A DNA stretch of 64,000 nucleotides from NCBI RefSeq assembly GCF_057098645.1, contig NZ_CM169472.1; one strand, given 5' to 3'. Shown here piece by piece: positions 41,701 to 44,700 of the stretch. How positions within the stretch are numbered: position 1 is the first letter of the stretch; every line of letters starts with the position of its first letter. A program made the position numbers.

Positions 41701-44700
41701 TGTTGCCATGATACCTGATTGGCAGAATAGTTGTTTGGTTTTGAGTATATAGTCAGCGTTTTTTGTTCAGTAATTGCTCCCTCAAAAAATAATAAAATAA
41801 GGTGATTATTTTTGTTTATTATTTAGTTTTTTTTGTGTGTTGTTTTATTGTTTTTGCGTGGTTTGTTTTTTATTGTTATTTCATTAAGGGAAGGTAAATT
41901 CAGGATGGCAGTCTGTAGATAATCGGAGGTCACTTATGCTACATGATCACGTGGCAGAATGTCTGGAGAAAAAAGGACTGTACCGGAGAGCAGCTGAACG
42001 ATGGGCAAAAGTGATGGTACAGCTAAGTGATGACCAGAAAAGAAAAGTGGCGGCACAGAAACGAGCAGAGTGTTTGCGTAAGGCGCGCCGGACTCCGGTT
42101 TCACCGGTGAACCTGACCGAAATAAAACAAGCGGTCAACAGACTACATTCTGAGTTGGGAATGGGATTTGAAGAGCGGCGGGTATTCCGACGATATAAAG
42201 GGACAGGAGAACAGAATACGTCCGGAAACGCGCGGTCAAAAAAATGCTAAAAAATATCTGAGAGAGTTATTGCCTGTTACCATAAGAAAAAGCGACTTTA
42301 GTGGTCGCTTTTTGTGTCATATATAAGTCGTTTAAGTAAACCTGTCTGAACAGGTGCTCTGGTCGTGTTTTTCTTTGTTGGGTACAAATTGAGAATATTT
42401 TTCATTAATTAATCTTCTTCTGCAGGCTTCAATAACCCACGCTGAAAAATTACCTGAACCTTTCAGGTCAAGAGCGATGTTAATTTGTTCAATTATCTGG
42501 TTTGGAAATCGGATGTTGCGGGTTGTTGTTCTGCGGGTTCTGTTCTTTGATGACATAATGTTGCCCCGTATTCAGTGTTGCTGATTTGTATTATCTGAAG
42601 TTGCTTTTACGCTAATTTGATGCAGATCAATTAATACGATACCTGCGTAATAATTGATTATTTCTCGTGGTTTGATGGCGTACACACATGTCGTGATAAA
42701 CCTCATGTAGATGATAATTATTATCATTTTGCGGGTCCTTTCCGGCGATCCGACAGGTTACGGGGCGGCGACCTCGCGGGTTTTCGCTATTTATGAAAAT
42801 TTTCCGGGAACCATGTCCGGTTTCTCTGCAAGTTAACTACATGAAAAATATAAGAACGGGCTTTCCGTGAACCGGACATGCGCAAAAAATGGACATATAA
42901 ACCGGACATGATCGGTTTTGTGCTAATTGTGAGGTGAGAGTTTTTGCGAGGTGAGGAGTGGCTACGCAGACTGAAGTTGCCAGGCATTTAAGTCTGACCG
43001 ATCGCCAGCTTCGCAGATTGCAGAAATTGCCGGGTGCCCCGATATCAAATAAGCGAGGGCAACTGGATCTGGATGCCTGGCGCGATTTTTACATATCGTA
43101 TCTGAGGAGAAGTAAAAACGATGTGCCTGATGGCGATAGCGAAGACGACTATGAGGAGAAATTGCTTATTGCCAGATGGGAACTGACAGCAGAACAGGCT
43201 GTTACACAGCAGTTAAAAAATGAGGTGTCAAAAGGAAAACTTATTGACACCGGGTTCTGTATTTTTGCCCTCAGTAAGCTGGCAATGGCGTTATCCAGTA
43301 CGCTTGATTCCATCCCTTTATCCATGCAGCGACAGTTTCCTGATTTAACACCGCGCCATCTTGACCATCTGAAAACCCTTATTGCTAAGGGGGCAAATCA
43401 GTGTGCGCGGGCAGGGGATAAATTACCGGATTTACTCGATGAATATATCAGAGCAACAACTGAATAATATGATGGCTGCCGTTTCGGTTGCGCTGCAGCC
43501 TCTGGTCAGGGTTGTACCAATGACGGCAGTTGAATGGGCTGATCAAAATTATTATCTGCCTAAAGAATCCTCATACGGTGAGGGCGAATGGAAAACGCTG
43601 CCATTCCAGATCGCCATTATGAACTGTATGGGTAACGACCAGGTTCGCACGGTTAACCTGATTAAATCTGCCCGTGTTGGCTATACAAAGATGTTGCTGG
43701 GGGTGGTCGGGTATTTTATTGAGCATAAATCCCGAAACAGTCTGCTTTTTCAGCCCACGGATTCTGCCGCTGAAGATTTTATGAAGTCTCACGTGGAGGC
43801 GACGATTCGGAACGTGCCATGCCTGAAAGACCTTTCCCCATGGCTGGGTCGTAAACATCGTGACAATACTCTCACGCTGAAACGCTTTTCATCGGGCGTC
43901 GGTTTCTGGTGCCTGGGCGGCGCTGCCGCCAAAAACTACCGTGAAAAATCCGTGGACGTGGTCTGCTATGACGAACTTTCCTCGTTCGAGCCGGATGTCG
44001 AAAAAGAGGGCTCGCCAACCCTGCTGGGGGATAAGCGTATTGAGGGGTCGGTGTGGCCAAAATCCATTCGCGGCTCGACGCCTAAAATCAAAGGCACCTG
44101 CCAGATCGAAAAAGCCGCTAACGAGTCGGCGCATTTTATGCGTTTTTATGTGCCCTGCCCGCACTGTGGGGAGGCGCAGTATCTGAAATTTGGCGATGAG
44201 TCCACGCCTTTTGGGCTTAAATGGGAGAAGGACAGCCCCGAAAGTGTTTTCTACCTCTGTGAACATCATGGCTGCGTGATCCATCAGTCTGAACTGGACC
44301 AGAGCAACGGGCGGTGGATCTGTGAAAACACGGGCATGTGGACCCGTGACGGTCTGACGTTTTTCAGCGCCCGGGGTGATGAAATTCCGCCGCCGCGCTC
44401 CATCACGTTCCATATCTGGACGGCGTACAGTCCGTTTACCACCTGGGTACAGATAGTCTATGACTGGCTGGATGCACTGAAAGATCCCAACGGCCTGAAA
44501 ACCTTTGTGAACACCACGCTGGGCGAGACCTGGGAAGAAGCCGTGGGCGAAAAACTCGATCACCAGGTACTGATGGATAAGGTGGTGCATTACACGGCGG
44601 CGGTACCTGCCCGGGTGGTTTATCTGACGGCGGGCATTGACTCGCAGCGAAACCGTTTTGAGATGTATGTCTGGGGATGGGCACCGGGAGAGGAAGCTTT

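Follow-up and report, generated by a model that had tools for sequence, protein, structure and literature searches.

A lambda-type cos site with a distinct cosB/TerS initiation allele and a predicted packaging specificity of its own

The 64 000-nucleotide stretch of contig NZ_CM169472.1 (NCBI RefSeq assembly GCF_057098645.1) analysed here, called the window throughout, contains a prophage whose packaging site, cos, lies immediately upstream of the genes for the small and large terminase subunits, terS and terL. Sequence comparison makes it likely that this is a lambda-type cos equipped with a distinct cosB/TerS initiation allele, with a predicted packaging specificity separate from the three that are documented, those of lambda, phage 21 and N15 (Feiss et al. 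2015, PMC4669245). A preliminary description of the region had proposed a mosaic packaging specificity, and at the level of sequence the mosaic is clear and sharp-edged: cosQ, cosN and I2 are lambda-like, cosB, terS and the 5′ end of terL are of a third type, and the rest of terL is 21-like. The elements concerned are listed below (positions in the window; bp numbers refer to the predicted left end; IHF, integration host factor).

42733–42739, plus strand: cosQ, GGGTCCT.
42747–42807, plus strand: lambda-identical block of 61 bp (bp −16 to +45; cosN and I2 region).
42763–42774, plus strand: 12-nt cohesive end, GGGCGGCGACCT (bp 1–12).
42792–42806, plus strand: I2 region, TATGAAAATTTTCCG, identical to lambda.
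42812–42822, plus strand: R3-equivalent box, CATGTCCGGTT (bp 50–60), an exact repeat.
42834–42846, plus strand: I1-equivalent IHF-like core, TAACTACATGAAA (bp 72–84), between R3 and R2.
42870–42880, minus strand: R2-equivalent box, AACCGGACATG on the plus strand (bp 108–118), inverted with respect to R3.
42900–42918, both strands: composite R1-equivalent, an exact minus-strand box at 42900–42910 (AACCGGACATG on the plus strand) overlapping a degenerate plus-strand copy, CATGATCGGTTT, at 42907–42918.
42958–43467, plus strand: terS, an open reading frame of 169 aa with a GTG start; predicted N-terminal winged-helix domain, aa 1–55 (42958–43122), and Nu1-family C-terminal part.
43439–45367, plus strand: terL, 642 aa, overlapping terS by 29 nt.
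42808–43512, plus strand: exchanged cassette of cosB, terS and the 5′ end of terL (first ∼25 codons).

The lambda-like part is the most familiar. An ungapped comparison with lambda J02459 gave 61 bp of identity with one mismatch at bp −17, in agreement with the earlier statement that the 12-nt end and about 45 bp around it match lambda exactly. By local blastn, 42763–42807 is 100% identical to lambda and the upstream 354 bp are 87% identical, and megablast places 42600–42807 at ∼89%; beyond bp 45 of the left end, after 42807, the comparison with J02459 found zero remaining similarity. cosQ precedes cosN by ∼30 bp and belongs to the lambda-like sequence that borders the identical block on its 5′ side, with the sequence and the cosN distance of lambda. 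The same motif carries the cosQ label in the published alignment of prophages Sp4 and Sp14 of Escherichia coli O157:H7 Sakai (Asadulghani et al. 2009, PMC2669165 Fig S8), which labels the I2 stretch “IHF”; I2 also has the position of the I2 feature in the phage 21 record M81255. GGGCGGCGACCT occurs a single time in the window, and we infer that terminase cuts at 42763–42774 to give 12-nt 5′ cohesive ends. The stretch 42733–42957 is quite probably the cos site of a lambda/21-like prophage, with cosQ, cosN and I2 in their common lambda version.

Compared with phage 21, a single segment, 42811–43512, has been replaced. Local blastn follows similarity to 21 on the cos side as far as 42810 and finds it again at 43513, where terL resembles 21 gene 2 at 92.7% nucleotide identity; lambda identity ends at 42807, and the cassette is accordingly drawn from 42808. 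TerL matches Pfam GpA_ATPase (2.8e-56) and GpA_nuclease (4.8e-71), shares 93% aa identity with 21 gp2 from residue 18 and 66% with lambda gpA, and its gene is followed by W-like and portal genes. In lambda, the C-terminus of TerS binds the N-terminus of TerL, and binding of this kind would explain why cosB, terS and the 5′ end of terL travel together.

Within the cassette, cosB is built around CATGTCCGGTT. Exact copies of this 11-mer number three in the window, all inside 99 bp, and correspond to the ccggacatg-type repeats in inverted-direct-direct layout of the preliminary description, which had missed the degenerate plus-strand copy overlapping the third. This overlap with CATGATCGGTTT renders the third box partly palindromic, and at R1 only the degenerate copy has the R3 orientation, the exact box being inverted. 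In 40 of the 41 other variants of the site described below, the degenerate copy reads CATGACCGGTTT, one step short of a perfect palindrome; the window has T where the common variant has C at 42912, and a few spacer positions differ too. That such repeats arose by chance in AT-rich intergenic DNA is a negligible prospect. Allowing one mismatch does give 4 matches in the window against 1.39 expected, and 5 of 100 shuffles reach 4 as well, but three exact copies lie within 99 bp with none elsewhere in 64 kb, and the boxes are conserved over 42 variants and across genera, comparative data that for practical purposes refute an accidental origin.

As in the lambda cos (cosQ-cosN-I2-R3-I1-R2-R1), cosN and I2 are followed by R3, an IHF-like site and an inverted R2, and terS overlaps terL. 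The R3-equivalent box is located where lambda and 21 have R3; in a sequence-based alignment of the boxes, it stands 3 bp nearer cosN than in either phage. R3 and R2 start 58 bp apart, compared with 52 bp in lambda (starts at bp 53 and 105), and the boxes at bp 50–60 and 108–118 compare with R3 at bp 50–65 and R2 at bp 107–122 in phage 21 (M81255), which has the same cosQ and cosN. The composite, inverted R1 is unlike that of lambda and opposite in orientation to that of 21.

The box sequences differ from those of both phages, as an alignment with the lambda and 21 cos regions, proposed earlier as a check, made clear. Lambda boxes read CGTTTCC[G/T]TTCT, and the lambda R consensus CGTTTCCtTTCT had no match in the window cosB at up to 3 mismatches, with a best box identity of 6–7/11; the earlier view that these are not lambda R sites is borne out. 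The R boxes in M81255 are AATCGTGTCGGTACTT, TTTCATGTCGGACCTT (reverse complement) and TTTCATGTCGGGCCTT. Against this 21 type (TTCATGTCGGnCCTT), the window box reaches 6–8/11 at best without gaps, its core needs a 1-nt gap for an extra C, and its flanks are GGTT compared with GnCC in 21. It has CATGTC..GG in common with the 21 boxes and TCCG in common with those of lambda.

TerS is likewise divided into a familiar and an unfamiliar part. An identical gene in RefSeq is annotated as terminase small subunit (WP_000235436.1). The Pfam profile Phage_Nu1 (PF07471) matched with 67.9 bits (cut-off 30) over aa 49–150 and profile positions 62–163 only, which leaves the DNA-binding part of the profile unmatched. 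In BLASTP, residues 73–164 aligned to lambda Nu1 at 46% identity and residues 64–166 to 21 gp1 at 40%, and the N-terminal 60 residues gave no alignment with either protein. The Nu1-like protein is thus diverged, as had been noted, and the divergence is concentrated in the N-terminal domain, which neither BLAST nor the Pfam profile could align with the DNA-binding domain of lambda Nu1 and which is unrelated in sequence to that of 21 gp1. An AlphaFold2 model of this domain has pLDDT (predicted local distance difference test) values of 80–90 over residues 1–50 and the topology strand, helix 4–10, helix 15–22, wing, helix 38–54. Its Foldseek list consists mostly of MerR-type winged-helix DNA binders (RdfS, MerR regulators, RacA, CadR, CarH) and includes the lambda TerS/RppC entry 6hn7 (TMq 0.58) and RppC 6hlk (TMq 0.64). 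The full-length model had been set aside, its Foldseek results being dominated by long-helix noise, and the N-terminal domain was refolded alone instead; a search of the TerS sequence against PDB chains gave chance matches only (E 0.7 or worse). On the strength of the model, the domain probably has the Nu1-type DNA-binding fold, from a different sequence family.

The putative recognition helix, T14–K23, reads TDRQLRRLQK, compared with SIRTIQNWQE in lambda Nu1 and DPRTIERWQS in 21 gp1. In boxes and helix alike, then, the window lacks the features of the lambda and the 21 specificity. It also lacks those of N15 and Monarch, namely R3 GAGGTTGTTGTT (the N15 sequence as quoted in PMC4669245) and an N15-type TerS N-terminus, features found at another locus, L097. 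A reading in which the cosB is simply 21-specific, with diverged 21 R sites and a TerS that reads the same sequence as 21 gp1, would fit the shared CATGTC..GG, the nearly equal positions of R3 and R2 and the 21-like remainder of the head operon. We regard it as improbable, given the inserted C in the box core, the differing flanks, the low ungapped identity, an N-terminal domain with no detectable similarity to 21 gp1, and R19 and K23 at the two positions that discriminate between lambda and 21, where 21 has E and S. Moreover, the replaced segment stops exactly where 21 similarity resumes, as in an allele swap and not in drift.

Whether the boxes behave as sites for this TerS was assessed from relatives in IMG/VR and in genome contigs. 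A first IMG/VR scan returned 80 loci, all with 99% identical TerS, which serve for conservation and not for covariation; 79 IMG/VR loci of that identity yielded 41 distinct cos sequences, or 42 with the window. A second scan, based on an alignment of distant relatives, gave nine loci besides the 67% E. coli type, six with the helix and boxes of the window type and three of a second type, here type B, with Asp20. A scan of genome contigs returned four loci, all distant (Azospirillum and similar) and with no independent enterobacterial lineages among them. Geometry was compared in nine loci with 60–80% identical TerS (Klebsiella, E. coli, Salmonella, Citrobacter, Enterobacter and one unassigned read assembly).

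Among the 42 variants, cosQ, the cohesive end and the R3 box are invariant, and 2 of 11 columns vary in R2. Counting substitutions only, variable columns amount to 4/33 in the boxes and 22/42 in the I1-R2 and R2-R1 spacers (Fisher p=2.7e-4, a value that is indicative only because the cos sequences are related to one another). In geometry, too, the loci agree: in every one of the nine relatives cosQ is followed at ∼79 bp by a box, and the start of this R3 is separated by exactly 58 bp from that of an inverted box. The best IHF-consensus match in the spacer lies exactly +22 from the R3 start in nine of ten loci, four of these matches being perfect. A composite R1 resembling that of the window also occurs in Enterobacter kobei, and the short cosBs of Salmonella and Citrobacter have no R1.

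Box sequence, in turn, follows the recognition helix. The helix ..RQLRRLQK (the window, P0021, P0034 and P0036) pairs with xATGTCCGGTT boxes, and ..LR[D/N]LQK (P0010, P0013, P0014, P0022 and P0027) pairs with CA[T/C]TTCCGGTT boxes; put in terms of helix residue 20, Arg20 goes with ATGTCCGG and Asp/Asn20 with AyTTCCGG. In more distant representatives of this N-terminal family (Pseudomonas phage LPPA33, a Pseudomonas-like contig, Azospirillum, and metagenome-assembled genomes of a Rhodospirillaceae and a gammaproteobacterial member), tandem TTCCG[G/C]TTCCGGTT-like elements immediately precede terS, with a cosQ-like GGGTCC before them where enough upstream sequence exists. Together, these comparisons support the view that the swapped cassette would carry its own recognition specificity.

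A second joint narrows the unit further. It lies inside terS: in P0056-like proteins the C-terminal part is nearly identical to that of the window and the N-terminal domain is different, and the loci of these proteins carry GGTTGTTGTT boxes, of the N15/Monarch type. The joint and the accompanying change of boxes suggest that the minimal specificity unit would be cosB plus the TerS N-terminal domain. The Monarch-like locus L097 has the same near-identity in the C-terminal part, with GAGGTTGTTGTT-type boxes and an N-terminal domain of another type than that of the window. N15 and Monarch (PMC4669245) are also the precedent for a further lambda-like specificity, and they occur with complex and simple cosB forms; within the window type, too, there are short two-box forms and one natural R2-R1 deletion. 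That deletion, at locus L014 (IMGVR_UViG_2675903621_000013), removes 30 bp equivalent to window ∼42873–42904 and leaves a two-box cosB. The two direct boxes, R2 and R1a, are likewise spaced 30 bp apart, and the simple N15 cosB has been proposed to have arisen by unequal crossing-over of this kind.

cosN itself can differ. At L088 and L097, ∼215–130 bp upstream of terS, cosQ (GGGTCCTTTCC) and I2 (TATTTATGA..) are kept and the cohesive-end position differs (..CACCGGGGGACGGCAGACGCGCAAAAAC..). One of the two loci has type-B boxes and the other N15-like boxes, an altered cosN beside different box types, from which cosN type and cosB type seem to assort independently.

These observations also weigh on the proposal that the repeats are not terminase sites at all, and instead bind another protein (a late or virulence regulator, or a redirector of the satellite type) or are inert remnants of a decaying prophage. 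Two insertion sequence (IS) insertions in the prophage and a PerC-family regulator gene just upstream of cos lend it something, as does the lambda-like cosN with foreign cosB, read by Rpp, of phage-inducible chromosomal islands (PICIs; PMC6739421). We nevertheless judge it very unlikely. In every relative, boxes occupy the places of R3 and R2, and their distances from cosQ and cosN are fixed; box sequence varies together with the TerS helix, and the boxes accompany the N-terminal domain through other genera as far as Azospirillum; the change of N-terminal domain type in L097 brings a change of boxes; and phage genomes recorded with laboratory hosts contain the cassette. The PICI comparison is instructive in its own right (Fillol-Salom 2019, PMC6739421; Murialdo & Feiss 2022, PMC9026076). 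Those islands, with their Rpp-TerS heterodimers, pair lambda-like cosQ and cosN with a foreign cosB as the window does, and their cosB is read by a winged-helix domain of Nu1-like fold; that of the window would be read by its own full-length TerS. In contrast to a PICI, the window continues into a complete terminase and head operon, and the full terS, terL and portal genes identify a phage and not a satellite.

The distinct initiation allele would work as follows. By analogy with lambda, the predicted N-terminal winged helix of TerS would read the boxes through its recognition helix (T14–K23, RQLRRLQK), in a cosB assembled from CATGTCCGGTT: R3 on the plus strand and, 58 bp from it, an inverted R2, with an IHF-like bend site between the two, followed by a composite R1. 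IHF may bend the R3-R2 spacer and let a TerS dimer hold both boxes, and the Nu1-like C-terminus of TerS would position TerL on cosN for the 12-nt staggered cut and the start of packaging. On this model, an exchangeable cassette of cosB, terS and ∼25 terL codons was placed in a 21-like head operon beside a lambda-identical cosN; initiation specificity is predicted to be unlike that of lambda, 21 or N15, and termination signals to be common to them.

Recognition can be compared with published genetics at the level of single positions. Base pairs 56 and 59 are critical for discrimination between lambda and 21, and the discriminator residues are 20 and 24 (PMC4669245). With the boxes aligned by sequence, the window has G as in 21 (G56; T56 in lambda) and C as in lambda (C59; G59 in 21). 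The residues aligned with 20 and 24 are R19 and K23 in the window, Q and E in lambda, and E and S in 21; R20 of the window aligns with N21 of lambda and R21 of 21. The pattern of Arg with G and Asn/Asp with T therefore recurs in the lambda/21 pair, which is suggestive, although it is not the emphasis of the published genetics.

Several points count against this account as a whole or against its parts. The match to the IHF consensus is weak in the window itself, with two mismatches to YAANNNNTTGATW at the I1 core, and R1 is inverted relative to the lambda/21 layout and missing in several relatives. The Foldseek matches fall short of statistical significance (best E=0.3), a common outcome with a domain of 55 residues. 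The similarity of the boxes to the R boxes of 21 makes partial cross-recognition possible. The published genetics point to residues 20 and 24 and not 21, and R19 and K23 are the same in both helix subfamilies, which also differ elsewhere (Leu36 vs Tyr36). The covariation may thus go back to one event in evolution, and residue 20 is accordingly a candidate contact only and may not be one.

With odds only a little better than even, the window represents one of two uncharacterised sister specificities, type A (ATGTCCGGTT, Arg20) and type B (AyTTCCGGTT, Asp/Asn20), both belonging to an old TCCGGTT-reading TerS N-terminal family that extends from alphaproteobacteria to E. coli.

Two further features of the cosB region were noted.

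42886–42896, minus strand: degenerate half copy, AAAATGGACAT, 82% identical to the neighbouring box.
42927–42955, plus strand: duplicated TTG[T/C]GAGGTGAG element, a tandem direct repeat, with the terS ribosome-binding site.

The half copy was considered as a fourth box and rejected, as it varies freely among close relatives, and it is probably not functional. The TTG[T/C]GAGGTGAG tandem duplication is nearly invariant among the E. coli variants, and TGAGGTGA stands before the GTG start codon in relatives too.

The prophage around the cos site resembles the effector-carrying lambdoid prophages of enterohaemorrhagic and enteropathogenic E. coli (EHEC/EPEC). The closest genome over 10 kb is that of strain Z1323HEC0422 (99.4%), where the same prophage carries tccP2 and espV. 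Just upstream of cos lie a PerC-family activator gene (Pch-like, 41936–42250) and, on the minus strand, a DUF3950/YlcI-YnfO gene (42332–42556), both (41936–42556) inside the stretch 87% identical to the lambda right end. An IS3-family element (39670–40883; IS629/IS1203-like, orfA/orfB, with an ALIL frameshift pseudoknot at 40486–40602) interrupts the lysis region between the endolysin gene (38821–39354) and Rz (about 41000–41470); in the closest genome the same element is located elsewhere, between the DUF3950 gene and terS. An IS21-family istA/istB pair (33772–35741) stands directly upstream of a SASA-family esterase gene (35790–37478, nanS-p-like), whose counterpart in the closest genome is uninterrupted and encodes 617 aa, and the 5′ end of the window copy may be disrupted. 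A tRNA cluster (32754–33270; anticodons CAT, TCG and TCT) followed by the small RNA STnc100 has the layout found downstream of Q in Stx-type phages, and here no stx genes follow. The early region of the prophage encodes the DicF antisense RNA and the sok antitoxin RNA of hok/sok (18550–18601 and 27854–28028).

The prevalence of the window type was estimated with 371-bp probes covering I2, cosB and the TerS N-terminal domain, searched in 5426 complete E. coli genomes, with a genome counted when at least 80% of the probe was matched and places given for all matches.

Window type: 1153 genomes, 1849 places, up to 4 per genome.
Lambda type (including cryptic nohA/nohD remnants): 3954 genomes, 5680 places.
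Phage 21 type: 1160 genomes, 1388 places.
N15/Monarch-like type: 221 genomes, 259 places.

The allele has been displayed before. It is the same as the cos/Nu1 of Sakai Sp4/Sp14, where Nu1 begins MATQTEVARHLSLTDRQLRRLQKLPGAPISNKRGQ and cosQ, cosN, I2 and the ...CCGGGATCCATGT start of cosB are those of the window; Fig S8 labels cosQ, cosN and the IHF site only, its alignment ends at the first box, and the paper contains no discussion of R boxes, of the layout of cosB or of specificity (PMC2669165). Phage records PhiR12_1 to PhiR12_5, with E. coli K-12 or E. coli C given as hosts, also carry this cosB and TerS (96% nt, 99.4% aa). A literature search for these boxes or for the PhiR12 phages found only the Sakai figure, with subscription journals outside its reach and prior mention possible. 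We read the window-type cosB/TerS as common and previously displayed, yet as an uncharacterised allele that appears from its sequence to be distinct from those of lambda, 21 and N15.

A heavily degraded prophage of the same type is present in strain 2013C-4974 (L099, NZ_CP027587.1). Its cos and terS match those of the window at 100% over 371 bp, its terL, portal and tail genes are truncated, and it carries the effector genes nleH, cif and espJ. It was rejected as the same locus on account of this degradation and the truncated terL, and it may be a passive prophage that only a neighbour of the same specificity could package. In Sakai, Sp4 DNA is packaged despite a disrupted nu1, which the authors attribute to the identical terminase of Sp14 (PMC2669165).

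The finding leaves the known packaging mechanism unchanged. Its interest lies in a cassette carried by roughly one in five complete E. coli genomes, often more than once, and located on EHEC/EPEC prophages with type III effector genes, where a common cosB/TerS pair would decide which defective prophages a neighbour’s terminase can package, as proposed for Sp4 and Sp14. The natural series of helices and boxes is a ready test set for how winged-helix small terminases read DNA, and orthogonal cos/TerS pairs are suggested for cosmid or phage engineering. If types A and B are indeed sister specificities, their pattern and that of the 21/lambda pair would point to a simple recognition rule of one residue and one base, and type A, as common as the 21 type and carried on EHEC/EPEC effector prophages, would define which defective prophages package each other.

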